Source of the DNA: a virus
Length of the DNA: 64,000 nucleotides
Reading direction: 5' to 3' (one strand)
Virus record (IMG/VR): IMGVR_UViG_3300033402_000312
In this document: positions 42,891-63,999 of the stretch, piece by piece
How positions within the stretch are numbered: position 1 is the first letter of the stretch
Layout: each line of letters begins with the position of its first letter
Translations under genes and position numbers: made by a program
The notes under the pieces: model-generated
Seen by the model: only the letters and a program-made list of their open reading frames with translations
Databases searched by the model: none
What the model was told of the DNA's origin: nothing

Positions 42891-43874
42891 TTAGATACCG
42901 AGATTGTCTGTATTGCTGGCTTTCCGGGCTTTGTGAGACGCCCTCATCCTTTGCCTAGTGGACTCTGGGCGTGTCTTTCCCGCCCAATATCCGGGCTTTC
43001 CGAAGCGGTTATTGCCAGCCCCCTGCCTCTGTTCGGATAGCCGCTTGCGTGCTTCATCCGACCATTTCCAGTGCTTTCCCTCGGCTGCCACGCGGACTTT
43101 CGCGGCGTGTTCCTTCGAAAGTTTGCGTCCATCCAATGTTTCGCTGATCTTGTCAGCGACTTCCTTGGGGCAGCCGCCTGCACGATGGTGCCGATCTCTG
43201 TGCGGGAGGTAGGAATAGGCGTTTGGTTTTCCCTTCTCTAGTTGATGATGCGCTTTGCTTCTTTCGCCTACTTTCATCTTAAATTCGCTTGAATGATAAG
43301 TGGGCCTCCCCAAGCAAAATCCTCGCTCCAAAGACGATTGAACCTCCTCGACTGGGACACGGTAAGACTCTTCTCCCTTGTGTACCCATTGGCGCGGCGG
43401 AGCGACCTGTGTCCATCCATCTATGAGCTTGGTGTCGAGTTCTTCGGCGGACACCACGGTGTGCAGCTTGCCTTTGTAAATATGCATCCAGCCTTCGACT
43501 GACACAGCGCCGGAGCGGATGCGCTCGTATTCTAGTGACATGTCCCGCACCAACGCCTCGTCGTAATTGCTCTGCACCAAAATGTTGAGGCGCTCCACGG
43601 ATGCCATCTTGAGGAAGGACAAGTAAGCAACCGGATGCTTCGGCAAAGCGCGGTAGAGGTAGTAGTGCGCTACGAAATGGTCGGACGGTGTGAGACGCTT
43701 CAGATTCCATGAGTGGTCTCTGAACGACTCGAACTCGGGGAACATGGCGCGTGGCAGAATGTGGTGGCGATGGCTGCGACCTGCCGGGGATTTGGCGGAC
43801 GTGACAAAATCCAGATAAGCGCCAATCCAATTCTGGTCAGCGCCCAGCCGACCGAAGTACGTTTTGAAATCCAT
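42891..43874 (-). CDS. HNH homing endonuclease with NUMOD-like C-terminal DNA-binding repeats (327 aa)
   Basis: SHRHHILPRAMFPEF...NLKRLTPSDHFVAHYYLY (HH...N...H HNH_3 pattern). C-terminal LSKEHAAKVRVAAEGKHW and GKPGYWAGKTRPESTRQRMRASH NUMOD-like repeats. Confidence 0.75.
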   Translation of the reverse strand: MDFKTYFGRLGADQNWIGAYLDFVTSAKSPAGRSHRHHILPRAMFPEFESFRDHSWNLKRLTPSDHFVAHYYLYRALPKHPVAYLSFLKMASVERLNILVQSNYDEALVRDMSLEYERIRSGAVSVEGWMHIYKGKLHTVVSAEELDTKLIDGWTQVAPPRQWVHKGEESYRVPVEEVQSSLERGFCLGRPTYHSSEFKMKVGERSKAHHQLEKGKPNAYSYLPHRDRHHRAGGCPKEVADKISETLDGRKLSKEHAAKVRVAAEGKHWKWSDEARKRLSEQRQGAGNNRFGKPGYWAGKTRPESTRQRMRASHKARKASNTDNLGI

Positions 43875-43967: not shown

Positions 43968-44927
43968 TTAGTTCTCACCCGTGTTCGCCGAGCTAACGAA
44001 ACGTCCGTTAACCGTCAAACGCTGGACTCCCGAAGGATTGAAAACCAAAAATCCCAAATTCTCGAAGATCGAGAAGCCGATCTGGCGGAGGTCCGGACGG
44101 TCGGCAGACATCACCGTGAGCGGAATACGCTCGGGGATGACGCCGAGGAACTCTGCGTCCGCAAGGATGTAAATGGAGCCGTAGCCGACCTTACGGGACT
44201 GGAGCAGCGTTGCGCCCCAGAGGTAGCCCATGACGCCGGTCTTGAGCAGCTTGCGCTGGGTTTCGCGGTCGATGTTCTGCTGAGTCCACTTGAGCAGGTC
44301 GGTGTAGTCGCGCGGGTTGAAGAACACGAACGCAACCGAGAGGTCGTGACGCTGCACCTGACCGAAGCCATCAGCCATGCTGTTGATGTCGATAGGGGCG
44401 TTGATCGCGATGTCCGGGTTGTACACCGGGTCGTTTGCCGCGTGCGTTGCCGCTGCGGAAGCGACTGCGTCGAAGAGCGAGAAGACGTAGGCGTCTTCCT
44501 GCGCTCCGACTTCTGCCTTCGCCAAGTTCAGGGAACGGGCGACGAGGTCGAAGCGGCGCTCCTTGATCTGGGTGATGGGGATCATCGGGTTGGAGACGAT
44601 TTCGAACGTCGGCACGGTGACGCGCTTCGGCTTGGTGACGCGGACGATGTCGCCGCCCTCTTCACCAACCACGAAAGCTTCGACGAAGGACGAGCCGGGT
44701 GTGGAGCCGACTGTCATCGCCGCCGTGTCGAATTCCTTGTCGTAGATCGGCAGTGCGCCGTCAGGCAGTGTCTCGACCATGAGCGCCTTGCGTGCGATGC
44801 TCATGTAGTCGCGACGGCGGCGAAGGGAAGGACCCAACGACGCTGCGAGCTTCTGGCGTCCGCCTGCTGTCTTGAGCAGTTGCCCAAGCATTGCGGTCTG
44901 TTGCTGCGTGCGTGAAAGATTTGCCAT
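43968..44927 (-). CDS. putative major capsid protein (319 aa from the internal ATG)
   Basis: ATG at 44927 preceded by TTAGGAGAAAAA. Sits after the scaffold-like gene and is followed by the strongest terminator in the window. Size and composition are compatible with an HK97-fold coat protein. No motif-level proof. Confidence 0.5.
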   Translation of the reverse strand: MANLSRTQQQTAMLGQLLKTAGGRQKLAASLGPSLRRRRDYMSIARKALMVETLPDGALPIYDKEFDTAAMTVGSTPGSSFVEAFVVGEEGGDIVRVTKPKRVTVPTFEIVSNPMIPITQIKERRFDLVARSLNLAKAEVGAQEDAYVFSLFDAVASAAATHAANDPVYNPDIAINAPIDINSMADGFGQVQRHDLSVAFVFFNPRDYTDLLKWTQQNIDRETQRKLLKTGVMGYLWGATLLQSRKVGYGSIYILADAEFLGVIPERIPLTVMSADRPDLRQIGFSIFENLGFLVFNPSGVQRLTVNGRFVSSANTGEN

Positions 44928-44968
44928 GATAGTTTTTCTCCTAAGAAGTTGTCTTAGTCGATTCCCCC

Positions 44969-45541
44969 TTACAGCAAGCTCGCAACGCCCAGCCACGGCT
45001 CGGGAGCCGTGGGGACGTGCGTGACGATGCCAACGGCAGGCGAGGCTGAACCCTTGTGAGCGGAGTCAGTGTACTTGCCGACGTTGGATTTTGTGTTGCC
45101 GCCTGCGTAGGCGTACTGCCCGAGCGCGAAGTTCGCGTTGGCATCGTAGCCTTGGAAGTCAACGTTGCCTTGCCACAAAGCGCGGACAACAGGAGCCTTG
45201 CGGGAGCCGGAAGGCCCGATAGCACCAGCGAACTCGCCGGGGCCATTGAGCAGTGTTGCGAACGGGACGTTGCCCTCGGAAGCGCCATAGGAAGGCGACG
45301 CCGCGTCAGTGTCAACGGGGACGATGTTTCCAATGGAACCCATCGCAGGCTCGTATGACGGCTGGAACGCAAGGGGGGCGGTCAAGGTCGCGGACGAGTC
45401 GATGATCGCCACGATGACGCCGCCGAGGTAGCCAGCGGAGGTAAGAGTCTGTTGGTCAGTGCCCGGATCGCCGGTCAGGAAGACGGCCGGGGTGCAATTG
45501 ACCGAATCGTTCTGACCATAGTATGTCAATTTCAAAGACAT
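44969..45541 (-). CDS. head-module protein (190 aa), Gly/Ala/Ser-rich; decoration or minor capsid candidate
   Basis: ATG preceded by TGGAGAAA. Located between the scaffold-like gene and the capsid gene. Confidence 0.45.
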   Translation of the reverse strand: MSLKLTYYGQNDSVNCTPAVFLTGDPGTDQQTLTSAGYLGGVIVAIIDSSATLTAPLAFQPSYEPAMGSIGNIVPVDTDAASPSYGASEGNVPFATLLNGPGEFAGAIGPSGSRKAPVVRALWQGNVDFQGYDANANFALGQYAYAGGNTKSNVGKYTDSAHKGSASPAVGIVTHVPTAPEPWLGVASLL

Positions 45542-48672: not shown

Positions 48673-49596
48673 TCAACGCCTCAAGTCCCCGCGAAAATCC
48701 GACTCAAGCAAAAACTCCCCGGTATCTTGGGCAAGGGTTTTTGAAGCAATCATGGCAAATTTAGAAGCTGCCGACTGCTTCTTGGTGTACGGGGTCGAGG
48801 GGCCGACCCATTCCTCGGCGACGATGCTTCTTTTCGCGGCTCCGGGGAACGCCGGGGTTGCAACCCAGCTTGCCTCGACGAATTTCACGCCGCCGTTGAC
48901 CATGGTCTTGTGCCCGCAAAGCTCGGCGATGCGGCGCGGGATGCCGTCGTCGTCGGCCAAGAACGTGCCCTTCTGGAAAGAGAGGTGGTTGCAGTACGTG
49001 TTGGCGTCAGTGACGCGGGTCCCGCAGTAGGAGCAGATGACAAGGTCGGTCACGCACCCCATGGACAGGTAGCGGACGTTGCCCTCGCGGATGTCGTTTA
49101 CCAGCTTCTCATGGGTGATGTCGGTCGCCACCAGGATGTCGCAGTAGTAGACCCAGATTTCGGGGGTAATGTTGATCTTGCGCAGGACTTGATCCAAGAT
49201 ATGCCCTTTTGCGTATTTACTGTTCTGAAAATGCTCGACGAAGTTGAAGGCTCCGACAAACGAAGGCGCTGACAGCTTCAAGACTTCGTTAGTCCATGCG
49301 TCATCGTTGTTGTTGACCAGGTGGCTTGTCTCGGGCTTGATCAGGTAATCGAACGGCTCTTCCTCCGTCATCACGCTGCTCATGATCGTTACGTGCGACA
49401 GCAAGTACTTTGAAGAAGAACCAGCGGCCATTTTTCGGCGTGCTGCCGCTGCGCTTCTGCTTGCAACTTTGCAGAACGGATGATCGCTGTCGATGTCGCA
49501 GCCGCGAAACGCACGCTTCCCGAACATCTTTTCCCAGTCGCCGGGATTCAGGATGGGTTCGTTCAACTGCGCGTTTGCTATCTTGTTAAACGGCAT
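48673..49596 (-). CDS. head-module protein (307 aa); prohead protease candidate by position only
   Basis: Lies between the 1883-aa gene and the scaffold-like gene. Contains conserved-looking His/Cys/Ser residues but no motif I can assign. Confidence 0.4.
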   Translation of the reverse strand: MPFNKIANAQLNEPILNPGDWEKMFGKRAFRGCDIDSDHPFCKVASRSAAAARRKMAAGSSSKYLLSHVTIMSSVMTEEEPFDYLIKPETSHLVNNNDDAWTNEVLKLSAPSFVGAFNFVEHFQNSKYAKGHILDQVLRKINITPEIWVYYCDILVATDITHEKLVNDIREGNVRYLSMGCVTDLVICSYCGTRVTDANTYCNHLSFQKGTFLADDDGIPRRIAELCGHKTMVNGGVKFVEASWVATPAFPGAAKRSIVAEEWVGPSTPYTKKQSAASKFAMIASKTLAQDTGEFLLESDFRGDLRR

Positions 49597-49608: not shown

Positions 49609-52600
49609 TTAATGGCTTGGTAAGTTCGTCTTTCCCGCGACAGTCCCGATGCGCTGAACCACCTCGTCGTCCGGGCGCTCGCTCTTGCCCCATGCCGCGT
49701 CAATCTCGCCGAAAAGCGGGTTTTCCGCAGCGCTGCTCTTGTGCCTTTCCTCGCTGGGAACTTCCTCGTCGGGAACTTCTTCATCAGTGAAGTCGTGGAC
49801 GCGCTTGTACGGGTAGCCGTAGAACTCGGCGGTGTACTCCTCACCCGCCATGTCCCACATCTCGTCCATGGTCTTCGAGTTCTCCTCGGCGAGTTGCTTG
49901 ATGTAGCCCTCCTGCATGAAGTGGCGCTTCACCTCGTCCTCAGCGTCCTGCTCCTGTTCGAGAAAGTACTGCGCCTCCTCGCCGCGCTCCGTGTCCTGTT
50001 GCGCGTACTCGGCGGTTTTTGATGCCATGCGCTCCTCTTGTTCTTCCATTGAAGGACGTCGATGTGACGGATTAAGGTTTATACTGTACGGAGTTAAGCT
50101 CATTGGAACCTCACGTTCATCAACCTTCGGCGTTATCCTTACCTCCGCTGCGGGTAACTTATTGACGTGGTCGCGTAAAGCAGTACGAGCTTTCAAAAAA
50201 CTTTGCCATTCTGGTGTGCGCCTTCGCTCAAACTTGTTCTCCTGATAGCCTTTCGCCCAACTCCATGGCGTCTCTTTTTCTTTGGCTTTATACAGCTTGT
50301 AGGCTGTCACGACCTGCTTGCACAACTCAAGAAGTCTCGGTGCATTCCTGCCCGTGGCTTTTTCGACTAATGTCATGAAGCGCTTTGACGGATTATCCGG
50401 GGTAACAAACAGAAACTCCTTTGCCTCCCCAAGGAGAGAGGCGATCTTGCCTTTGCCCTCAAGCATCCTGCGGATGTCTGCGGGGCGCGACCATTCGGGA
50501 AGCTCCTTGGCGTCCAAGTCTGGCGGAAAATAGAAAATCCATTTATCCGTGACGGACGGCTCCCAGTTAGCGGCGAACGCCGTTGCCTGCGCGATTTGCT
50601 GCGGCGTCAGCCCTTTCGGCGGAAGGTGATAGAACAGCACGCCATCGTGCAAACCGACGCGCAGCGCCCCGGTGTCCTTAAGGAACGCGACAATCGCTTC
50701 CTCGTCCTCGTACTCTTCGTCGGTATAAAAGTTCTCAACCGTGAAATGGTCCATGTCGTCGCAATTCAAGATGGTGCCGTTCCGAAGGACGTAGATACGC
50801 TCATTGTCCACGGAGCCGATGCCGAACTGGTCGAGAGCAAGCTTTTCAAGTTCCTGCTTGCTGCGAGCGGCCGTCTTCGGGCGGGTTCCTTTGCTAGCGC
50901 ACTCCTTCGAGCAGAACGGGCGGCAACCCTCTGATTTCTTGTAATAGTTCGGTCCGCCGCAAACCGGGCAGTGGTGGCTCGGCTGCTTGACTTCGATTGC
51001 CGCGACCACGCCGTCAGGATTGATGCGCGGGTCGATCATCGGAATGCGCTTCTTTTTCGGGTTCAGCGGCTCATGCACGCCCTGCATCACGCCCTTGGTG
51101 AGCAAGTCCTGCTCCTGCTGGTCGAGGTGCTCCTTCATGTCGTCGCGGGGCGGGAGCTTGTCCGATGTCTCGTGCATCTCGATCAGCGCTTTCTTCTTGA
51201 GCAGAAAGGACTGGAACTGAAATCGCATCTGGTTCTTGTCTGTCTTCTGCTGCGGCGAACCGCCCTCGGTGTACCACTTCTCCATAAGCTCTGGCGCTTC
51301 GTACTCCTCATCACGGTCGCTGTAGTCCGGGTTCGGGTCAACCCAAAGCTCAAGCTGTCCATCACTGATGTCCTTCGGACCGTCGCTCAGCATTCTCGAC
51401 GCGCCCCAGCGGTCGAGAACTTCGTAGACCGGGGCGATCCTCCATTCGTAGCCGAAGCTCTCGTCGAACTTTGGGCCGTAGCGAAGCTCGGTGTAGACGT
51501 TGTCGTTGCGCTCGCGCATGCCGTCAGTGAGTTCGTAGTGAAGGTCGCTCGTGCGGTCATCCGCGTATCGCGCCTCGCCGCTGAGGCGGTAAGCCTCATG
51601 GATGTTTTTCCAAACCGAGCAGTCCGGTGCATAGCGTGCCATCGTCAGAAGAATTGACCGCATTTGGTTCTCATCTGTAAAGTCAATCTGCTGAACTTCA
51701 CGAGAAGAAGTGACTCGGCCTGCTTTTTGCTCCTGCGCCCACCATTGGAGCACCCCCTCTTCTTCCTGCTGGAGAGACTGACCGATCCGGCGCATCGCAT
51801 CGTAGCTGAGCGCTTTCACAAGCTCGTCCGCCATCTCCCTGTCATCAGGCATTTCCGGCGTGGGTCTGGTGCCCTCCGACCTCAGCGCGTAATACAGCGC
51901 GTCGTTTGCGCCCTCATTGCCGATCTGGGAGACACACTCCTCTAGGTCGTCCCACTCGCGCACGATCCACAGGTCTTGCTCGGGGCGGAAGTTGCGCTTG
52001 TCCAGCCCGGATTCAGGGGCGATACGCTCCATGAACTGCTCCCACATCTCGCTAGGGAAGAAAGTCTTCGCGTAAAAGTGCTCGTTTTTAGCGTCAGACG
52101 CAATAAGCGCTTCCTCGTGGAATGTGCCGTCTGGCATTGGTTCGATCCCCGGCGTGTCGCGCCATGCCCGCTTCAGTACTTCGACTGCGTATTTCGCTGA
52201 GCCAAACGCAGTCTCAAAGTTTGGCTGCGCTTTGTGTAATTTTGCTTCAAACTCCGGCCAGCGTCCTTTGATGACTCGAAGGGCATAGTCTACTGCCTGT
52301 GACATCATTGACCTGACTCCATATTTTTCGCTGCTCTTGGTGGGGAATGCTTTTTGTAGAATCTTCTTTTCGCCCGCTGCCCAACGCCCCCTGACAAATT
52401 CAAGCGCGTAATCCGTTATCTCTTGCTCCCTATCTTTGGCGCTGAGAACGGCTTTCTCCAACGGTGCCCATCGTTGCCCGGCGTGGAATTTTGCCCCGTA
52501 CCTCATAAGGAGAGGCAACTCGACCTGTTTCCCGAGGTGCTGCTCTTCCTCGGGGCTGAGAGGCTCGCCCTTCGCCAACGCGTACTGTACTGCCATGGTG

Positions 52601-55212
52601 CGGGTCTTCGTGCCTTTTGCCGATTCCTCCTCCTTTTTCTTGCCGAGGATTTCCACCAACGTTGCGGGGTCGGTGGCATTCTCCTTTACCCAAGCCGCGA
52701 CGTCCGGCGCTTTCGCGGATAGAAGCTGAAGCCCGCGCAAGGCGGTCGGGTCGTCAACGAATTTGGCGATGGTCTGCCCCTCGTCCTCGATCTCCTGAAC
52801 CATGCACACGTCGGTGCGATTCATAAGCTGATCGGAGGCGGGATGAAGCTGTGCGAAGGCGCTGCCGCCCTTGAAGAAGACGTAGCTGGGACCCTCGCTG
52901 AGATACTGCTTGCTCCACTTATTGTGCGCCGTGCACCAGTTCGTGCCGCCCGAAAGCTCCATGAGCGCGGCAGCGTCTATGACCTTATAGATCGTGAGGT
53001 CGCCGTCTTTCACGATGATCTCCGATCCTTTGGCGACGTCTTGGCGCACTTTCTCCTTTTTGCTGACCGCCTCTTGGTTCTGTTTAACGGTCTCGTACAG
53101 GGATTCCGGCATGTACGACTGAATGTCTTTGTTGCCTTGGAATTTCGGCGACTTCTTCAGCTTGTTGAACAGGTCAAGCTGCTGCTTGAGCTTCGGGGCA
53201 TCCTCGGGGAGCTTGATCAGATTCCTGCCGAGCCACTTCGCGATTGTTGCGACGAAGTCCGTCTGATTCGGGCTGGGGTCGGCTTGGATGCAAAATTCAA
53301 TCTGTTCGGGTGTGAGCCTGAACTGTTTCTGCAAAAGCTCGATCTTCTGCTCGGTAGGGCGTGCAGACTTGGCGAACCATCCGCAGTTGTCGGTGCTGCC
53401 GATTTTCCCCATCGCGACAGCTAGGTCGTTGCCATCCACCTCGGAGGCCCACAGGCGAGCTTGGCTGTCATATTCGTTTTCTTCAGACGAAGTCATGTTC
53501 AGCATCGCCTCGCCCTCGTCGAGTTCCTCTTCGTCGGAAGCCCCCGCGTCGGGGTTGTCGGTGCCGCCTATCGGCGTGCCCATGCCGTAGCTCTTGGTCG
53601 GGACGTCAGCGGTTTTTTTGCACGGGTCATTGATGCCCGGAACGATGCCGTGACCCCAATTTTTCCCGCAGGAGTTGCATTTCGCCGTTTCGAAGTCGGC
53701 AGGCATCAGACCGTAGTCGTCCGAGCCGCAGTGCGGGCACTTTGGCTTGCCGCCCAGCTTGACTTCCCTGTTCTGGATCACCGCCTTGACCATCTCTGGC
53801 TCAAGCGCATGCACGGAGACGATCTGCTCCGGCTTGACGGAGCCAACGGCTTTCAGCCAGCGCCCGGCGTTCGCCGCCTGCGAGATCGGGTCGGAGGTGT
53901 CAACCTTCCACTGCTCCGTGCCGAACTTGAAGGCAATGATGGAAATCTTGCCCGTGCCCATGCCCTTGTTAAACTCCCAGTCCATCTTGGATGCCCAGCG
54001 CACCGCATCGGCAGGGTTGTCGATTGCATAAATCTCGCCCTCGCCGTAGCGCTCGCCTTCCGGGCTGCCCTTGATCCAGTTGGAGGCCTGAAGCGGGAGG
54101 ATTCCCTTCTGCCTGATGCTTGGGACTTTGTCCGTGAACGTGACGTGGTACAGCGTTCTGCCTGCGCCTGCTGCCGTCCTTGCAAGCTCGGCGATGGTGA
54201 CGAGGCTGGCATCCTTGTGCGGCTTGTCGCCCTCGTCCCATTCCGCGCAGCAGGCAAGGGGAACAATGTGCATCCCCCAGAAAGCACACCATGACTTGCG
54301 ACCGTGCTGGTCTGGGGCTTCCGCCTCGGTGCCGTACTCGCAGCGGTGGCACCCGAAGCCGCCCTCGTGCTCGGCGTACTTGGCTTCCGCCCTGGAGAAC
54401 TTCTTCTCCATCGGCATCTGGTTTTCCGGGCTGCCTCTGTGGTACAGTCGGCACGACCCCTTCTCGAAGCTGATGGGTCCGTTGACGCGCATGCACTCGT
54501 CTGTACCTTGCCGCATGTCGCACGTCCCGCACAGGTAGTTGCCCTCCGGGTCGAATGACTTGATGTTGTCGGTGTTGACGTTGTCGGCAGGCTCGGCATA
54601 TTGCGACCACTGCTTAGCTTCCCTGCGCACGTGGTCTTCGTGCTCAAAATCGTACTGGCCTGAATCAGGGAACTGCCCGTGCGCTTTTTTGACGACTGGC
54701 GCGTGCTTGTAAAACTCGTGCTCCGCCTTGTCTTCTTCGACAGGGACAATCTCGCGAGCTTCCTTCTCTTCGCCTTGCACTTCCCTTAGCACGTTCTCAA
54801 TTGGCTTCACGCCGAGGCTGACGAGCGTAGCCTGCGCCTCGACCTGCGCCTCGCTCCAGTCCGGGTGCGCCTCGGCGATCTGGATATAGGTGTTGAGGTG
54901 GCGGCGATTCGCCGGGCGGCGGTGGTAGCGGGTCCCGACCTTCGGCTCGGACTCCTTGAAGAACTCCGCGTCCTCCGGGCCGGACGGGGGCGCAAGGTCT
55001 TTCGGCGGGATGACCACATTGATCTCGCCCGAGTTCCTGTCGCCCTTGTTCTCGAACTCGGTGCCCTTGCTCCCCCCGGTGCCGCCGATGGGGCTGGCGT
55101 AAGGCTTGTTGCCCTTGTCCACGCCGTGACCGCCGAGCGACTGGTAGTCGTCGGTCATCATCGAATCCAGAAGGGCGTCAAGGGCGCGTTTCTTCAGCAG
55201 TGGGGATTTCAT
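49609..55212 (-). CDS. giant protein (1867 aa from the ATG at 55212; 1883 aa from the GTG at 55260) with zinc ribbons and a possible ART-fold segment
   Basis: CGTCDM...C, CHRCEYG, KCPHCGSDDYGLMPADFETAKCNSCG, and CPVCGGPNYYKKSEGCRPFCSKEC ribbons. The segment LYHVTFTDKVPSIRQKGILP resembles the LYHGT...I...GL-P start of Tpt1/DarT-type ADP-ribosyltransferase folds. Confidence 0.7.
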   Translation of the reverse strand: MKSPLLKKRALDALLDSMMTDDYQSLGGHGVDKGNKPYASPIGGTGGSKGTEFENKGDRNSGEINVVIPPKDLAPPSGPEDAEFFKESEPKVGTRYHRRPANRRHLNTYIQIAEAHPDWSEAQVEAQATLVSLGVKPIENVLREVQGEEKEAREIVPVEEDKAEHEFYKHAPVVKKAHGQFPDSGQYDFEHEDHVRREAKQWSQYAEPADNVNTDNIKSFDPEGNYLCGTCDMRQGTDECMRVNGPISFEKGSCRLYHRGSPENQMPMEKKFSRAEAKYAEHEGGFGCHRCEYGTEAEAPDQHGRKSWCAFWGMHIVPLACCAEWDEGDKPHKDASLVTIAELARTAAGAGRTLYHVTFTDKVPSIRQKGILPLQASNWIKGSPEGERYGEGEIYAIDNPADAVRWASKMDWEFNKGMGTGKISIIAFKFGTEQWKVDTSDPISQAANAGRWLKAVGSVKPEQIVSVHALEPEMVKAVIQNREVKLGGKPKCPHCGSDDYGLMPADFETAKCNSCGKNWGHGIVPGINDPCKKTADVPTKSYGMGTPIGGTDNPDAGASDEEELDEGEAMLNMTSSEENEYDSQARLWASEVDGNDLAVAMGKIGSTDNCGWFAKSARPTEQKIELLQKQFRLTPEQIEFCIQADPSPNQTDFVATIAKWLGRNLIKLPEDAPKLKQQLDLFNKLKKSPKFQGNKDIQSYMPESLYETVKQNQEAVSKKEKVRQDVAKGSEIIVKDGDLTIYKVIDAAALMELSGGTNWCTAHNKWSKQYLSEGPSYVFFKGGSAFAQLHPASDQLMNRTDVCMVQEIEDEGQTIAKFVDDPTALRGLQLLSAKAPDVAAWVKENATDPATLVEILGKKKEEESAKGTKTRTMAVQYALAKGEPLSPEEEQHLGKQVELPLLMRYGAKFHAGQRWAPLEKAVLSAKDREQEITDYALEFVRGRWAAGEKKILQKAFPTKSSEKYGVRSMMSQAVDYALRVIKGRWPEFEAKLHKAQPNFETAFGSAKYAVEVLKRAWRDTPGIEPMPDGTFHEEALIASDAKNEHFYAKTFFPSEMWEQFMERIAPESGLDKRNFRPEQDLWIVREWDDLEECVSQIGNEGANDALYYALRSEGTRPTPEMPDDREMADELVKALSYDAMRRIGQSLQQEEEGVLQWWAQEQKAGRVTSSREVQQIDFTDENQMRSILLTMARYAPDCSVWKNIHEAYRLSGEARYADDRTSDLHYELTDGMRERNDNVYTELRYGPKFDESFGYEWRIAPVYEVLDRWGASRMLSDGPKDISDGQLELWVDPNPDYSDRDEEYEAPELMEKWYTEGGSPQQKTDKNQMRFQFQSFLLKKKALIEMHETSDKLPPRDDMKEHLDQQEQDLLTKGVMQGVHEPLNPKKKRIPMIDPRINPDGVVAAIEVKQPSHHCPVCGGPNYYKKSEGCRPFCSKECASKGTRPKTAARSKQELEKLALDQFGIGSVDNERIYVLRNGTILNCDDMDHFTVENFYTDEEYEDEEAIVAFLKDTGALRVGLHDGVLFYHLPPKGLTPQQIAQATAFAANWEPSVTDKWIFYFPPDLDAKELPEWSRPADIRRMLEGKGKIASLLGEAKEFLFVTPDNPSKRFMTLVEKATGRNAPRLLELCKQVVTAYKLYKAKEKETPWSWAKGYQENKFERRRTPEWQSFLKARTALRDHVNKLPAAEVRITPKVDEREVPMSLTPYSINLNPSHRRPSMEEQEERMASKTAEYAQQDTERGEEAQYFLEQEQDAEDEVKRHFMQEGYIKQLAEENSKTMDEMWDMAGEEYTAEFYGYPYKRVHDFTDEEVPDEEVPSEERHKSSAAENPLFGEIDAAWGKSERPDDEVVQRIGTVAGKTNLPSH

Positions 55213-55355
55213 CCTAATAGAAGAACGGGAAAGTCCGAGAAAACAGAGAATATAAAGCACTGAAAACGCAGGAGATCGCTACTGGACATTTTTTGATGCC
55301 CGGCTGTATACTATTGGCGTACGAACGGCATCAAATAAGAAGGAGGAAGGAACCC

Positions 55356-56147
55356 ATGAAGAACGGAGCTTCGGCAGTCCTTTCAGCCCACGCCGATACC
55401 AACCTGGTGACCCGCGAAACCCTCCGGGCGCTCCCGGCTGTGGTCGGCACCGACACTTTCAAGCCTGTTGCCCACATCGAACTGATCGAGACCCTCGAAA
55501 GAAAACTCAACGACCGCAGCATCCAGATCATCCGCGAGCAGTACGCAATGTCCAAAGACGGCATGAAGCTGTTCGGCACCCTCGACCTGACGCTGGACGG
55601 CGTCGAAGGCATGGGCGCGAGCCTCGGCATGCGCACCGCCAACAACCGCGAAATGGCGCTCCAGATGATCGCCGGGATGCGCGTTTTCGTTTGCGACAAC
55701 ATGGCGTTCAGCGGCGAGACGATCATCCTGCGGCGCAAGCACACTTCCGGTCTGAACCTGATCGGCGAGTTGGCGAACGCCCTCAACCAGTACGAAATAC
55801 ACTACCGGAAACTCAAGGCGGAGATCGGCGACCTGCGCGACTACGGCATGTCCGACCGCGACGCGAAGGTCATGATTCACGACATCTTTGCCAAACAGAT
55901 CATGCCCGTCCGGTACATGCCGGAAGTGAGCGACGTCTACTTCACGCAGTTCGTGCAGAGCGACGAGCCTCAGTTCGCCGCGTTCCGCAATCGCTCTGCG
56001 TGGAGCCTCCTGAACAGCTTCACCGAGGTCGCCAAGCTGATGCCCCTGACGACCCGCATGGACGCCACCCAGGAGATCGGCGCGATCTTCGGCAAGCTGG
56101 TCGCCAGCGCCGAAGCCACGGGTCTCGACCGCTTTAACATTCATTAG
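55356..56147 (+). CDS. DUF932-like phage/plasmid protein (263 aa)
   Basis: ATG preceded by AGGAGGAAGG. FGTLDLTLDGVEGMGASLGMRTANNREMALQMIAGMRVFVCDNMAFSGE resembles the DUF932 core (NSHDGS-like stretch followed by R-x-x-C-x-N). Confidence 0.45.
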   Translation: MKNGASAVLSAHADTNLVTRETLRALPAVVGTDTFKPVAHIELIETLERKLNDRSIQIIREQYAMSKDGMKLFGTLDLTLDGVEGMGASLGMRTANNREMALQMIAGMRVFVCDNMAFSGETIILRRKHTSGLNLIGELANALNQYEIHYRKLKAEIGDLRDYGMSDRDAKVMIHDIFAKQIMPVRYMPEVSDVYFTQFVQSDEPQFAAFRNRSAWSLLNSFTEVAKLMPLTTRMDATQEIGAIFGKLVASAEATGLDRFNIH

Positions 56148-56250
56148 TAGGTAGCCAGTTTCGGGAAGTCGGCTGTATACTCAGTATGACTAAATGAAAC
56201 CGCTGGACAGGCGGGGCGCAAGCCCCGCCGCCAGCCTCAAGGAGAGAAGA

Positions 56251-56466
56251 ATGTGCGAGATTGGAAAGCCTCTTGAAATCCTGAACGTCGAACCACTGGT
56301 TCACCCCGCGCCCCTGCGCCGGGAAACGGAGCAGCCGGAAGAGCAGCCCACGGAGCAGCCCGTGATTGTCCCGGTTGAAGTTCCGGTTGGAGAACCGACG
56401 TGCAAAGGCGCGACGGTGTCCCCGGTTGCTGGCACGGAAAAGACCGCCTACCCGTACATCTACTAA
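56251..56466 (+). CDS. small Pro/Glu-rich protein (71 aa)
   Basis: ATG preceded by AAGGAGAGAAGA. Confidence 0.35.
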   Translation: MCEIGKPLEILNVEPLVHPAPLRRETEQPEEQPTEQPVIVPVEVPVGEPTCKGATVSPVAGTEKTAYPYIY

Positions 56467-56468
56467 CC

Positions 56469-57347
56469 GTGCCGAGGCGAGCCAAACGCGGCGGGTACGA
56501 AGCTCTCCCTCACGCCGGGTACGGCGTTGACTTGAGCAAGGTGCCGGACACGTACATCGAGCCGTTCACGGCGTACCGTTCGTGGAACTGGACTACCAAG
56601 GGCGTCACGTCCCTCAACGGCACGCTGTGGACTCCCAAGCAAGCCTTCGAAGCCACGTGCCCGCACGCCGACGACCTGCGCTCGATGCAAGCCGCGTGCG
56701 GCTCAGAAGCAGGGAGCAGATTTTGGCAGAAGCAAGCCCACCTTGTCCCCGACCCCGGCTGCACGTGCGGGATGTACGCCGGGATAAACATGCAGCACCT
56801 TCTCGACATCGGCTACATCCAGCGGGGCATCCACGGCGAGGTCAGCCTTTGGGGCAGATTGTATCGTCACACCCTCGGCTGGCGTGCCCAGTTCGCGTAC
56901 CCCAAGTTCTTCGTCGTGCCGATGAATATGATTCCGTTCCGGCTCGACGAGGCAAAACAGCAGCTTAACATGCTCGCCGAATTCGGCGTGGACGTCTACC
57001 TTCAGCCGGAGAAGGAAGCGCAGGTCGGGCAGGAAAGAATCCCGCTGTGGATGAGCGACTACGGCTACAGCCAGCAGGGCTTGTCATTGCTGGTCGAGAA
57101 GCGTGCGCAGTGGTACGCGGAACACCCGATGGTGCATCCCGTCCTCGCAGTCGGCGACCGCGTGGCGGTATTCAGCAGCGTGAACGGCGGCGGAATCGGC
57201 ATCGTCACGGAAATCATCGGCGAAGAAATGTTCTACAACTTGTTCAACCCGAACGTGGTCTACCGCAAGCCAGTCAAGGAAGTCCTGTGGAACGAGCAGA
57301 ACTGGCGCTGGGAGACGAGCGGACTCGGCTTCATGCGCAGGGTGTAA
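56469..57347 (+). CDS. hypothetical Cys/His-containing protein (292 aa)
   Basis: GTG 2 nt after the upstream TAA (translationally coupled). Contains CPHADDL and DPGCTCGMYAG. Confidence 0.45.
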   Translation: MPRRAKRGGYEALPHAGYGVDLSKVPDTYIEPFTAYRSWNWTTKGVTSLNGTLWTPKQAFEATCPHADDLRSMQAACGSEAGSRFWQKQAHLVPDPGCTCGMYAGINMQHLLDIGYIQRGIHGEVSLWGRLYRHTLGWRAQFAYPKFFVVPMNMIPFRLDEAKQQLNMLAEFGVDVYLQPEKEAQVGQERIPLWMSDYGYSQQGLSLLVEKRAQWYAEHPMVHPVLAVGDRVAVFSSVNGGGIGIVTEIIGEEMFYNLFNPNVVYRKPVKEVLWNEQNWRWETSGLGFMRRV

Positions 57348-61224: not shown

Positions 61225-63999
61225 TCACAAACTTGTTTGGACGGTGAACGTCACCGACAAGTACAGCAAGCTGAAGATAGGCGCGAAGGTGACCGTCACG
61301 TCAACTTCGGTCGGGTCGTTCGGGTTCTGGATGACCACAAGGCTCTGGTACCCGGAGATGATCTGCAAATCCTTCAGGTTCTTGAGCAGGCTGTTGCTGA
61401 CCACCGTGATGTCGGTCACGAGGCTGTCCACCAGCTTGCGGCCGATGAACTGCTGCAAGGTCGAGCGGAACTGCTGCGCGACGTAGTCCGCGATGGTCGT
61501 CGAGGTCGGCTCGCTCACGAGCGTGTTCTGCGGGTCTGTGGTCTTGTAGTGGCGGATGAGCAGGCTGCCGTTGTTGTCGAGCAGCCAGGTCAGGCCGTTC
61601 GCTGCCCCGAGGTCCATCGTCGGGTTGTCGTAGGTGATGAGCAGGCGGCTGAACCCGACCAGGTTCTGGAGGGTCAGCGTGGTCGCCACGTCGTTTGCCG
61701 GGTTGCAGTTCAGGCCAGCCATCGCGGCTGCCATGAACGGTCCGTCAACGAGGTATTCTATTGCGACGCCCGTCGTCGGGTTGGTGATCAGGATGCCCGC
61801 CGCTGCGTTGCCGATGGCGATCACGCGCTGGCTGAGCAGGCTTTGCGCGTTCGCGCTCGCTTGCGCAGCCGTCGTGAACTGGCTGTATCCCACGAAGCTG
61901 ATTGCCTCGCCCTTGTACCGTGCGGTCGCCTGGGTCGTCAACTGGCGGCTCAAGGCCTGGTGCACTGTCGGGTCGTTGCTCAGCGGCACCACGACGTCCG
62001 CCTTGCGGTTGAGGCCGGGCAGGTTGCTCGTAAGCTGCTGGAGCGCCGCGATGTAGTCGCTGGAGGCAGCCACGTTCGTGCCGGGCTGCACCGGGACTTG
62101 GATCGCACCGAAGGTCTGCACGCCGTTCAGTGCCATCAACTGGATGCCCAGCGAGAGGCGGTTGATCGTGGAAGGCTGCCCGTAGTTGCTGTAGGCTGCC
62201 GATGCCGACGTGTAAAGCTTGAGGGCGTAGTCGCTCGCGACCTTGTTCGTCGTGAAGGTCACATAGTAGAACGTGCCGACAGCCGGTCCGTCGCCGCTGC
62301 CACGGAAGGTGCTGACGACAACCGTGTCGCCGGTCGTGGCGTTGTAGTCCGAGACTACTTCCGTCTTCAGGCCGGGGATCGCGATTGCGTTGTTGCTGTA
62401 CGCCGGGGAGATGCCGGGGGTGCCGCAGTTGCGTGTCGCCGCGCTCGCGCCGGAGGCGTCAGCCTTCACGATGAACCGGAGCGTGTCGCCCACCCCATAG
62501 CTGTAGCTTGCCGGGATCGAGGTCACGCCGTAGGCGACGTGGTCGGCCGGGTTGACGATGGTGACGCGGAATCCGGTCACGATGTCGATGTACGTTTGGT
62601 CAAGGTAGCCGATGTTCGACCCGCCAGTGCCGGAACCCCTCGGGTTGGTCGAGGTGACGGTGTAGCTGTGCGTGACCGGGGTGAAGACCGCGTCAGCGCC
62701 GCCAACCAAGTTGGCTGCCGCAGTGGTCGCCACGTTCGTGGTGTTCGGCGTCACGACTGTCGCGAGAACCTGACCGCCGCTTGCCGTCCCTGCGGACGGG
62801 AAGTTTGCCGCGATCTGAGCCAAGGTCTGCAACGCGCCAGTCCAATTGGCGTATATCGTAACGAGGTTGCCGCTGACCGTCACGGGGACAGGACTCAGGG
62901 AGGACGCGTCGAGCGCGATCTGCACGCTGTCGCCGTTTGCGCCCGGAACTGACGCGGTGAAGGTGATCGAGCCGTTGGAGCCGAAGCTCGTCGTAAGGTG
63001 AGCCTGCACTGCCGGGGTGGTCACGCTGTTGCCGTCGTTGTTGAACGTGAGGGTGATCGTCTCGTCCACCGCCGCCCCGGCGACCGCCTGCGCGTCGCCT
63101 GTCTGGTACGGGCTGTCGAACGACACCACGCCCGGATAGATGATGCCGGTCTCGCCGAACGCAGCGCCCTGCGCAACCGAGTTCGCGCCGCCGATGACAA
63201 GCGGGGCGATGCGCCCCAGTTCGTCGGCGATCTGGTAAGTGCCCAGTCCGACGTAGCCGGGGGTGACGACTGAAACCGTGTACTGGTGCGAAGCCAAGGT
63301 GTTGCGGTAGTAGGATGCCCACACGCCCACCGGCTGGGCTGGCTGGCTTCCGCCGCCGCTTGACGGCTGAGGGGGATTGAACAGGGTGACCTGCTGCTGC
63401 GCCTCACCGCTGAGCGCCGCCACTACGACCGCGCCAGCTTCGAAAGCCTCCAGCGGGTCGGAGCCGACATAGACTTTGATGAGCGACGGGTTGTCCGTTG
63501 GGCGGCCCAATCCGCTGCCGTCAGTCGGCGTGTCAGGAATAGAGAAGACCGCGTTGCGGCCGTTGACGACGCCGGACAGCGGGCGGAGCCAAACCTGCTC
63601 GTCCACAAGGGTTGTCAGAATCTCGGACGGGGTGAAGTTCGCAAGCTCGCCAGCGGACGACGTGCCGACCGCCTCGCTCACGTTGTTGCCCCAGTTGACC
63701 GTGTTCGACACGACGTTGCCCAGCTTGTCGTATGCCTCGCCGAGGACGTAGTCCACGCCCTGTGCGAAATCCGTGCGGTTCGGCCCGAGGCCGACCTCGA
63801 TGATCGAGGCGACATTCGAGCTTGGGAGCAAGTCGAACGTGTTCTGCCACGTGTTGTAGTAGTAGGTGAACGTGAGGGTCGAGCCGTATGCCACCGGGCT
63901 GGCGAGGGTGATCTGGCCAGCACCGCCGTTGACCGCCGCAACCACAACAGGGGAGCCGTTGACCAAAGCGGCGACAAGCGCCGGGTTGGTCGTGGTCAC
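61225..63999 (-). CDS. putative contractile tail sheath protein (>=924 aa; the gene probably continues beyond the window end)
   Basis: The C-terminal ~120 aa (LLIRHYKTTDP...IADYVAQQFRSTLQQFIGRKLVDS...VDVTVTFAPIFSLLYLSVTFTV) follow the conserved sheath C-terminal pattern. Central Ig-like insertions. First in-window start is a GTG 1 nt from the edge. Confidence 0.55.
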   Translation of the reverse strand: MTTTNPALVAALVNGSPVVVAAVNGGAGQITLASPVAYGSTLTFTYYYNTWQNTFDLLPSSNVASIIEVGLGPNRTDFAQGVDYVLGEAYDKLGNVVSNTVNWGNNVSEAVGTSSAGELANFTPSEILTTLVDEQVWLRPLSGVVNGRNAVFSIPDTPTDGSGLGRPTDNPSLIKVYVGSDPLEAFEAGAVVVAALSGEAQQQVTLFNPPQPSSGGGSQPAQPVGVWASYYRNTLASHQYTVSVVTPGYVGLGTYQIADELGRIAPLVIGGANSVAQGAAFGETGIIYPGVVSFDSPYQTGDAQAVAGAAVDETITLTFNNDGNSVTTPAVQAHLTTSFGSNGSITFTASVPGANGDSVQIALDASSLSPVPVTVSGNLVTIYANWTGALQTLAQIAANFPSAGTASGGQVLATVVTPNTTNVATTAAANLVGGADAVFTPVTHSYTVTSTNPRGSGTGGSNIGYLDQTYIDIVTGFRVTIVNPADHVAYGVTSIPASYSYGVGDTLRFIVKADASGASAATRNCGTPGISPAYSNNAIAIPGLKTEVVSDYNATTGDTVVVSTFRGSGDGPAVGTFYYVTFTTNKVASDYALKLYTSASAAYSNYGQPSTINRLSLGIQLMALNGVQTFGAIQVPVQPGTNVAASSDYIAALQQLTSNLPGLNRKADVVVPLSNDPTVHQALSRQLTTQATARYKGEAISFVGYSQFTTAAQASANAQSLLSQRVIAIGNAAAGILITNPTTGVAIEYLVDGPFMAAAMAGLNCNPANDVATTLTLQNLVGFSRLLITYDNPTMDLGAANGLTWLLDNNGSLLIRHYKTTDPQNTLVSEPTSTTIADYVAQQFRSTLQQFIGRKLVDSLVTDITVVSNSLLKNLKDLQIISGYQSLVVIQNPNDPTEVDVTVTFAPIFSLLYLSVTFTVQTSL

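Follow-up and report, generated by a model that had tools for sequence, protein, structure and literature searches.

Some phages carry ADP-ribosyltransferases (ARTs) in their particles, T4 Alt being the prototype; these enzymes count among the earliest phage proteins to act in the infected cell, and polyvalent proteins are regarded as toolkits of such enzymes. T4 Alt is made late and packaged into the head; the prohead protease processes it, and on injection it modifies host proteins (PMC5512222). Surveys predict head packaging for polyvalent-type proteins (PMC5512222, PMC9503650). The described systems to which the present locus can be compared comprise (i) Tpt1/KptA (PF01885; PDB codes 6E3A, 9LD3, and 8TFI), found in an RNA-repair context and displaying an N-terminal winged-helix RNA lobe in addition to the NAD+ lobe, in which, as described for CthTpt1, bonds to the ADP-ribose come from His101 and Thr103, with Ile111 stacked against the adenine (PMC6333775); (ii) DarT, the DNA thymidine/guanosine ART toxin of the DarTG toxin-antitoxin pair; (iii) ART-PolyVal (PF18760, Tox-ART-HYD2 clade), with an H-Y-D triad whose Asp is located on strand 5, an ART module known from polyvalent proteins of conjugative elements and phages (Iyer et al. 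2017, PMC5512222), which in phages are large, shuffled, multi-domain proteins with predicted packaging and injection; (iv) T4 Alt itself, a member of the R-S-E clade of ~75 kDa built around one enzymatic domain; and (v) the H-H-h minimal ARTs, including CC0527/DUF952 (2JQN), the rifampin ART Arr (9IAF), and BC2332 (2AUA), which are bacterial, cytoplasmic enzymes with small-molecule or unknown substrates. Here we describe a giant phage protein that is, in our judgement, rather likely to be a polyvalent effector bearing a new ART module of Tpt1-like type, with predicted carriage in the virion, predicted activity and a putative host target.

The giant gene and its genomic neighbourhood

The 64,000-nucleotide stretch of viral DNA analysed here (hereafter, the window; IMG/VR record IMGVR_UViG_3300033402_000312) derives from a ~450-kb soil myovirus, kin of Tunturiibacter phage Tunturi_5. 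An uninterrupted ORF of 1883 aa, read from a GTG, occupies 49609..55260 on the minus strand. An ATG at position 55212, residue 17 of this frame, gives a product of 1867 aa, the version used in public gene calls (P0235, 100% identical) and the probable true start. The earlier note had combined a length of 1883 aa with the interval 49609-55212; both figures are real, but the length follows from the GTG and 55212 from the ATG, so that they mix two alternative starts of one gene. Over its whole length, the giant protein shows only sub-threshold zinc-ribbon and HNH matches in Pfam and PHROGs, and a tblastn search of GenBank phages (E ≤ 1e-5) returned zero matches. No tRNA genes were found in the window.

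The gene is embedded in a series encoding, in order, the sheath, a homologue of a 'DNA ejection protein', a virion structural protein, the giant protein, a protease, a 741-aa protein, the decoration protein, and the major capsid protein. The prohead (head maturation) protease-like gene, located immediately downstream (48673..49596, minus strand; phrog_18299, E 3e-14), encodes a product 55% identical to Tunturi_5 gp331, annotated as 'head maturation protease', and the giant gene lies directly upstream of this protease also in ~450-kb relatives of Tunturi_5. In Tunturi_5, the only cultured relative, the giant gene is missing and the slot is occupied by a 169-aa ORF with no significant similarity. 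The proposal that Tunturi_5 gp330 is a cargo-less form of the giant protein is not supported, the likeness being confined to short motifs (KGTE and QYFxxQE) with a profile score of 2.4 bits. A portal function for the giant protein was also rejected because Tunturi_5 and phage G share the same head module without the giant protein and encode their portal elsewhere.

Modular architecture of the giant protein

The giant protein comprises a succession of modules, all encoded on the minus strand. The N-terminal 'handle' (residues 17-100; 54961..55212; MKSPLLKKRALDALL...KGTEF...AEFFKESEP) is common to all orthologues, with or without an ART domain. It is followed by a Cys-rich module (residues 187-352; 54205..54702), whose nine Cys and single His (His331) do not vary among 18 homologues, and which is independent of the ART domain, being present also in orthologues that lack it. 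Downstream of the ART domain (residues ~365-497; 53770..54168), a four-Cys zinc ribbon 'tag' (residues 502-550; 53611..53757) recurs, at 75-90% identity, as part of about 28 large proteins that are otherwise unrelated; its CxxC...CxxC pattern (C508, C511, C528, and C531) begins 11 residues past the ART domain. The flanking described in the earlier note is real in this protein: the downstream ribbon is classical, and the separate upstream Cys-rich module is not a simple ribbon. Such flanking is not a trait of the ART family: stand-alone homologues are devoid of ribbons, and the other giant proteins have theirs at a different place relative to the domain. Neither the ART domain nor the tag has a second copy in the 64-kb window.

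The remainder of the chain includes a module spanning residues 600-1085 (52006..53463), made up of an α/β part weakly similar to GNAT and of helical repeats of HEAT-like type, and recurring as the N-terminal portion of jumbo-phage proteins of ~770-880 aa that stand alone; a conserved module present in both long and short orthologues (residues ~1340-1422; 50995..51243); a YacG-like Cys cluster with a weak, below-threshold family match (residues 1430-1455; 50896..50973); and an acidic, conserved C-terminal 'handle' (residues 1741-1846; 49723..50040; ...AQYFLEQ..DAEDEVKRHFMQEGYIKQLA...MDEMWDMAGEEYTAEFYGYPYKRVHDFTD).

An ART-fold domain related to the NAD+ lobe of Tpt1/KptA

Residues ~365-497 constitute a discrete, compact domain of about 130 residues, predicted from its structural model and profile matches to fold like an NAD+-using ADP-ribosyltransferase and belonging to a family that is not modelled in Pfam, PHROGs, or NCBIfam. 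The peptide TLYHVT...IYAID, on which the earlier note had based its proposal of an ART fold of the Tpt1/KptA and DarT type, corresponds exactly to residues 369-414 (54019-54156, minus strand). Successive searches with the domain segment retrieved 26, then 89, then 513 homologue clusters, a family of more than 500 clusters as counted at 50% identity, many members of which are stand-alone phage proteins of 130-155 aa.

The AlphaFold2 (AF2) model of the domain (pLDDT 84.7, pTM 0.80) displays the hallmarks of the ART superfamily, with a split six-strand β-sheet core, helices after the strands, and the NAD+-binding His on strand 1. The proposed fold is borne out by three agreeing comparisons: (i) a Foldseek search yielded 18 matches with E < 1e-3, every one of them Tpt1/KptA or DarT; (ii) the family profile matched Tpt1/KptA chains in the PDB (E 1.3e-3) over exactly the LYHxT...I...G[IL]xP stretch; and (iii) hhalign of the family against four Tpt1 NAD+ lobes gave a probability of 92.7% and an E value of 4.2e-7 for β1-α1. 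A non-ART fold did not emerge from the structural comparison, and a search of the PDB with the single sequence produced only a β-propeller repeat match, judged spurious.

At the level of curated families, the domain of the giant protein itself matches no Pfam family at E ≤ 10, and the ART family as a whole has no match above threshold in PHROGs or NCBIfam. The weak Pfam and NCBIfam matches of family members are to PARP, Tox-ART-HYD1, PTS_2-RNA, and RNA 2'-phosphotransferase, and to no others; PTS_2-RNA is matched by 4 of 27 members tested (best E 0.081) and RNA 2'-phosphotransferase by 5 of 25 (best E 0.01). A tblastn search of 50,697 GenBank phage genomes with the domain (E ≤ 1) gave no match, and the family is therefore absent, at the BLAST level, from the families named in earlier surveys.

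The closest known relative of the domain is the NAD+ lobe of Tpt1/KptA, with which it shares the His, Thr, and Ile contacts; membership of the Tpt1/KptA family was nevertheless rejected, the matches falling below the curated Pfam threshold and both the RNA lobe and the essential tetrad being missing. KptA aligns to the ART domain from KptA residue 101 onward only. In stand-alone homologues only ~5-20 residues precede β1, whereas the giant protein carries the Cys-rich module at this place. Tpt1's Arg-His-Arg-Arg tetrad has no equivalent, three of its four residues sitting in the missing lobe; that R404, 90% conserved in the family, is the counterpart of the fourth would be only a guess. Compared to Tpt1, the domain also displays a conserved insert of ~20 residues (SNW...RYGxG) before β2, and a longer β4-β5 loop with the motif DxxDPxSQ. 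The conserved SNW...RYGxG loop (residues 393-408) is of low confidence in the AF2 model.

These differences bear on a possible role in RNA repair, with the domain serving in 2'-phosphate removal or RNA-end processing once host anticodon nucleases have attacked. Tpt1/KptA tops both the sequence and the structure matches, and KptA for tRNA repair is often encoded by jumbo phages (PMC9503650); however, the winged-helix RNA lobe is missing, and with it three members of the essential Arg-His-Arg-Arg set of four (PMC6333775), Tyr or Phe stands in place of the second Tpt1 His in 93% of the domains, and no RNA ligase or 2H phosphoesterase is found beside the ART gene in the contexts examined, so that we hold this role to be very improbable. 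The domain resides within a giant protein of the virion module, outside an RNA-repair context.

The other known ARTs are more distant. DarT is not matched at the sequence level (no DUF4433/DarT model), the ART domain is about 70 residues shorter, no DarG macrodomain partner occurs among the neighbours examined, and the domain belongs to a phage virion module as opposed to a toxin-antitoxin pair. ART-PolyVal shares the setting of the domain, and it co-occurs with it in 6 of 26 large carriers, but membership was rejected as well: no Pfam match was obtained, hhalign against eight copies aligned nine columns around the His (E 0.066), and the acid of strand 5 is lacking. To the H-H-h minimal ARTs the domain has no detectable sequence similarity.

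The predicted NAD+ site and the triad positions

Conservation was analysed in 242 aligned domains. H372 (54145-54147, minus strand), T374, and I382, conserved in 99%, 98%, and 98% of the domains, align with H101, T103, and I111 of CthTpt1. The His is kept in 240 of the 242 domains and the remaining two have gaps at this position, so that homologues do not lack it. Beyond β1-α1, residue equivalences to Tpt1 derive from a low-confidence extended hhalign alignment, in which the placement of β2 is doubtful, and from the order of secondary structure elements rather than from superposition. With this reading, in which the equivalence comes from the strand order of the model, the second triad position on β2 (Tyr411; 54028-54030) is Tyr in 51%, Phe in 42%, and His in 4% of the domains. 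The start of β5 reads G466 (98%)-x-W468-L-K, with x variable, and a conserved acid or catalytic Glu is absent at this site from the 242 domains; the only conserved acids nearby, D454 (99%; 53899-53901) and D457 (95%; 53890-53892), are located in the β4-β5 loop. The H-Y-E arrangement anticipated in the earlier note is thus recovered in part: the downstream Tyr appears as a mixture of Tyr, Phe, and His, and the Glu is missing. Because the β2 residue is mixed and the start of β5 bears no conserved acid, this is not a classical H-Y-E triad, and the absence of the β5 catalytic Glu makes the activity and chemistry of the domain uncertain.

Judged from sequence conservation and the model, the domain is probably active and NAD+-binding. 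A dead ART fold, retained for binding NAD+ or ADP-ribose or for structural reasons, is quite improbable: the His, Thr, and Ile contacts and about 20 further positions, D454, D457, and Q461 among them, are near-invariant across the 242 domains in very different proteins, and a stand-alone gene for the domain persists in many phages. The turnover of NAD+ or ADP-ribose derivatives, by an NADase, an Arr-like small-molecule ART, or a neutraliser of NAD+-derived immune signals, is decidedly unlikely, since the long conserved loop and the β4-β5 loop resemble recognition elements for a defined target.

Module exchange and proposed delivery on entry

The orthologues of the giant protein range from 1092 to 2301 aa and preserve common handles, with ART, GNAT, ART-PolyVal, zinc ribbon, and Cys-rich modules gained or lost. 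Seven proteins (P0236, P0237, P0238, P0243, P0248, P0249, and P0251) display the same N- and C-terminal handles without the ART domain, P0238 occupying the same genomic slot, and other same-handle orthologues bear GNAT or ART-PolyVal. In its large size, its multi-domain make-up and a domain content that differs between relatives, the giant protein resembles the polyvalent proteins (Iyer et al. 2017); the ART is probably an interchangeable 'weapon' module within a particle-carried protein. Among the 26 large carriers of the ART domain, three contain Phage_Mu_F in addition to the six with ART-PolyVal, and NUDIX, Acb1, and Kinase-PolyVal are also seen; MuF further occurs in P0293, a protein bearing the zinc-ribbon tag. 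In comparison with a close relative (L005), identity reaches 98.8% for the major capsid protein and 78% for the protease, but only 45-64% for the giant protein; the giant gene is the fastest-evolving of its cluster, an arms-race signature.

Cargo delivery on entry agrees with the position in the head module and with the polyvalent-protein company of the ART domain. According to the proposed sequence of events, the giant protein would be made late in infection and incorporated into the capsid via its N- and C-terminal handles, perhaps with the zinc-ribbon tag too; it may be processed by the neighbouring protease and would be ejected together with the DNA. Early in the infection of the new host, the ART module would transfer ADP-ribose from NAD+ to a nucleic-acid phosphate or to some host macromolecule. 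T4 Alt offers the functional precedent, although there is no family-level kinship, and the giant protein, of ~210 kDa, is shuffled, with the ART as one module.

Alternatively, an active ART might not be ejected, acting late in the producing cell, where it could modify DNA or proteins of host or phage while particles assemble, or as a structural head protein with the enzyme working in situ. What the late structural gene cluster proves is co-expression with the head genes and not ejection; searches of the giant protein with Pfam and PHROGs revealed neither MuF nor a portal or other known packaging domain; and ARTs encoded close to packaging genes might instead act against immunity that targets the packaging apparatus (PMC9503650). 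Nevertheless, the domain elsewhere accompanies MuF and typical injected-effector domains, and both the quick divergence and the cargo swapping among orthologues are typical of host-directed effectors, which makes a non-ejected ART unlikely.

A possible phosphate-directed chemistry and implications for phage biology

KptA/TRPT1 can ADP-ribosylate 5'-phosphate ends in vitro. A capsid-delivered, Tpt1-like enzyme reduced to the NAD+ lobe that ADP-ribosylates phosphates, not protein side chains, is a speculative extension of the effector proposal to which we give a small chance. One role of such an enzyme might be the capping of 5'-phosphate ends, either on the incoming phage genome or on host RNA/DNA; another might be the conversion of a phosphorylated small-molecule immune signal. 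The nearby zinc-binding modules would replace the missing RNA lobe in nucleic-acid binding. If true, it would represent a virion-delivered phosphate or nucleic-acid ART without a catalytic Glu, a chemistry as yet undescribed among injected phage effectors, and would extend the known means of early host takeover or genome protection.

The domain adds to the ART superfamily a widespread family, unmodelled by any library, whose nearest kin is an RNA-phosphate-modifying enzyme and not a protein-modifying toxin. At this locus of Acidobacteria-type megaphages, cargo modules, including ART, GNAT, ART-PolyVal, and TPR, are exchanged between conserved handles, and these handles, together with the zinc-ribbon tag, could serve to predict packaged proteins in uncultured huge phages.

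The giant protein and its ART-fold domain

An ORF without interruption at window 49609..55260 (minus strand) encodes, from a GTG start, a modular giant protein of 1883 aa, whose residue numbering is used throughout. An earlier note ended this ORF at 55212; the ORF is present, but that coordinate corresponds to an ATG at residue 17 and a product of 1867 aa, whereas the 1883 aa run from the GTG. The 1867-aa version found in public gene calls (P0235) is 100% identical to the giant protein and occurs on JGI and ENA contigs of up to 894 kb; the 894-kb contig, which carries the exact protein, is about twice as long as related contigs of 447-465 kb and may therefore be a concatemer or a mis-assembly.

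The peptide in which an ADP-ribosyltransferase (ART) fold had been suspected matches residues 369-414 exactly (window 54019-54156), and the observation is confirmed. An AlphaFold2 model from a 27-sequence alignment of the domain family (pLDDT 84.7, pTM 0.80) begins with strand 1 (TLYHVTF) and a helix, joined by a long loop to strand 2 (EIYAI), after which come a long helix and strands 3 to 6. Structural comparison with Foldseek returns 18 matches at E<1e-3, every one Tpt1/KptA or DarT, and the family profile retrieves Tpt1 chains from the PDB (E 1.3e-3), with PARP15 next. Weak Pfam matches recurring across members include (i) PARP (7/27), (ii) Tox-ART-HYD1 (6/27), (iii) PTS_2-RNA (4/27), and (iv) DUF7002 (4/27), the recurrent NCBIfam match is RNA 2'-phosphotransferase, and hhalign of A2, the trimmed domain profile, against four Tpt1 NAD+ lobes gives a probability of 92.7% (E 4.2e-7). 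The agreement between structure search and sequence methods supports the suspected ART fold for residues ~365-497, as predicted from model and profiles.

Active site

Across an alignment of 242 domains, the His singled out in the earlier note, H372, is kept in 240, the remaining two being gaps. Positions conserved at 95% or more comprise H372, T374, I382, G386, W395, G406, G408, D418, A419, W422, W428, G437, W451, D454, D457, P458, G466, and W468. In Tpt1 from C. thermocellum, the 2'-OH of ADP-ribose is bonded by His101 and Thr103, with Ile111 stacking on the adenine (PMC6333775); given the identical LYH-x-T...I spacing, H372, T374, and I382 are their counterparts, and the NAD+ site thus looks intact.

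Strand 2 and its helix (EIYAI-DNPADAVRWA) parallel the YVHLS-ADE... segment of Tpt1, which, judged by strand order rather than by superposition, would make residue 411 the second member of the triad; this position is occupied by Tyr (51%), Phe (42%) or His (4%). The start of strand 5, the place of the catalytic Glu in H-Y-E enzymes, carries no acid in the 242 domains, reading G466-x-W468-L-K with x variable. Of the downstream Tyr and Glu anticipated for an H-Y-E fold, the Tyr would be found in part and the Glu is absent. The conserved D454, D457, and Q461 lie in the loop before strand 5, the equivalent of the ARTT loop, and a conserved insert of ~20 residues ahead of strand 2 (S-N-W...R-Y-G-x-G, residues 393-408), modeled at low confidence, sits where PARP structures have the donor loop. 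This configuration, His followed by Tyr/Phe/His and lacking the Glu, resembles the H-H-h group of the Tpt1 type more closely than the classical H-Y-E enzymes.

Relationship to known families and distribution

Tpt1 itself is rejected: the domain lacks the N-terminal RNA lobe, which in Tpt1 holds three of the four residues of the essential Arg-His-Arg-Arg set (PMC6333775), and no member scores above the family threshold. The ART that polyvalent proteins usually carry, ART-PolyVal, is a different family, with only 9 columns aligned by hhalign against eight copies (E 0.066), and DarT is discarded in view of the lack of a sequence match and of a macrodomain partner among the neighbors examined.

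The domain is genuine and mobile: residues 345-504 as query retrieve 26 proteins, the majority stand-alone, of 130-155 aa and 42-65% identical. The A2 profile matches 89 proteins in a word-indexed database, all devoid of Pfam annotation, and, among 1.84 billion representatives, 513 clusters at E<=1e-3 (164 at E<=1e-30), many of them with the domain embedded in proteins of 1,000-3,238 aa. Stand-alone genes are located on large phage contigs, one encoding a T4-type portal and baseplate, another LigA and SNF2 and UvrD helicases. The window holds a single copy; the domain matches no PHROGs family, and tblastn against 50,697 GenBank phages yields zero matches at a cut-off as loose as E<=1. The domain is a new Tpt1-like ART family without the Glu.

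Modular architecture of the giant protein

The zinc ribbons described as flanking the domain hold on one side: the downstream CxxC...CxxC ribbon (residues 508-531) is real, whereas upstream, at residues 187-352, stands a distinct Cys-rich module in which nine Cys and one His are invariant. Both occur without the ART domain and at other positions relative to it, and are neighbors rather than components of it. The ribbon belongs to a tag (residues 502-550, window 53611-53757, minus strand; KPKCPHCGSDDYGLMPxDFETAKCNxCGKNWxHGIVxGINDP), a 45-residue piece of which is 75-90% identical across about 28 otherwise unrelated large proteins, including a TPR protein in the pre-protease slot of another phage (L013) and P0293, a MuF, PARP-type ART and topoisomerase I polyvalent protein; packaged proteins may share this piece as a handle or as a tag for targeting.

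Local comparisons disclose three handles kept in every orthologue, (i) residues 17-100 (window 54961-55212, minus strand), with the KGTEF and AEFFKESEP motifs, (ii) residues 1340-1422, and (iii) the acidic C-terminal residues 1741-1846, separated by a variable middle. The motifs KGTE[F/P], [A/T]FFKESE[P], and HEFFKEAPEFEM, conserved N-terminally in all orthologues and in an unrelated TPR protein that occupies the same slot, directly upstream of the prohead protease gene, are candidate cleavage or docking sites for that protease. This 993-aa TPR protein fills the slot on a 148.7-kb contig; its resemblance to the orthologues is confined to the zinc-ribbon tag and the motifs KGTE and FFKESE. The ART module is carried by P0239-P0242, P0244-P0247, P0250, P0253, P0255, P0268, and P0271, and is missing from P0236, P0237, P0238 (in the same slot), P0243, P0248, P0249, and P0251; some orthologues display GNAT or ART-PolyVal. 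Pfam scans of 26 large proteins with this ART domain reveal ART-PolyVal (6/26), Phage_Mu_F (3/26), NUDIX, DUF3626, and GNAT (2/26 each), and Acb1, InPase, Kinase-PolyVal, and Hint (1/26 each), the repertoire that Iyer et al. describe for polyvalent proteins (PMC5512222).

A further module, residues 600-1085 (window 52006-53463, minus strand), comprises the invariant motifs ARPTxQKI, DPSPNQ, GTNWCTA, and GPSY and repeated YAxxVxKGRWPExE helical repeats, weakly suggestive of a GNAT-like plus HEAT-like fold; it is also N-terminal in stand-alone jumbo-phage proteins of 770-880 aa, as in L011, where genes for PNKP and RNA ligase lie close by.

Compared with the close relative L005, the giant protein is 45-64% identical, versus 98.8% for the capsid, 91% for the 226-aa protein, 84% for the sheath, 78% for the protease, and 70% for the 741-aa protein, and is thus the fastest-evolving product of its cluster. 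The L005 homologue (L005:8608-14910; ENA ERZ25039557 contig_6921, 221.8 kb) lies in three ORFs (frames 1, 2, 1; 457, 253, 1383 aa), with the ART piece as a separate ORF and the zinc ribbon missing, an arrangement that could be a genuine split or an artefact of indels in long reads.

Head-gene cluster

The major capsid protein (43968-44996, minus strand) is 70% identical to that of Tunturi_5, a cultured Tunturiibacter phage (Acidobacteriota myovirus, 309 kb, 58% GC), and shares 35% identity with its counterpart in Bacillus phage G. In minus-strand order, the tail sheath (61225-63999) comes first, followed by a 633-aa protein homologous to the 'DNA ejection protein' of Tunturi_5, a virion structural protein of 226 aa (64% identical), the giant gene, the prohead protease (phrog_18299; 55% identical to Tunturi_5 gp331, annotated head maturation protease), a 741-aa protein, a 190-aa decoration-protein homologue, and the capsid gene. 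Two plus-strand genes (55293-57347), encoding a DUF932 protein (E 2e-7) and a 315-aa ORF, interrupt the series between the 226-aa structural gene and the giant gene; a DUF932 homologue occupies the equivalent place in L005 and L008. Gene order is identical on a 447,784-bp contig, and many giant-protein orthologues reside on contigs of 447-465 kb. A portal role is rejected, since the giant protein is missing from both Tunturi_5 and phage G.

Directly downstream of the capsid gene lies an HNH or homing-endonuclease-like ORF (42891-43874, minus strand; phrog_655, E 6e-18), with HNH genes at the corresponding position in L005, L009, and L010. Three other giant minus-strand ORFs, 12839-17614 (1591 aa), 17629-23847 (2072 aa), and 33862-38844 (1660 aa), lack the ART domain and match only PHROGs of unknown function; in Tunturi_5, large genes downstream of the capsid gene are annotated as tail fibres.

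Proposed role

The predicted ART fold retains conserved NAD+-contact residues, forms part of a shuffled, fast-evolving giant protein of the head cluster, and co-occurs elsewhere with MuF and other effector domains. The giant protein would be packaged via its handles, possibly cut by the adjacent prohead protease, and ejected together with the DNA, whereupon the ART module would apply NAD+ to a host target. Myovirus ARTs are predicted to be frequently head-packaged (PMC9503650), and a packaged and ejected ART would match both this prediction and the T4 Alt precedent. With a Tpt1-like site that lacks the Glu, the acceptor may be a protein side chain, a phosphate or base of a nucleic acid, or a small molecule. 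The setting, a phage polyvalent, virion-associated effector with putative activity, delivery, and target, is of a kind already known; what is new here is the ART family.
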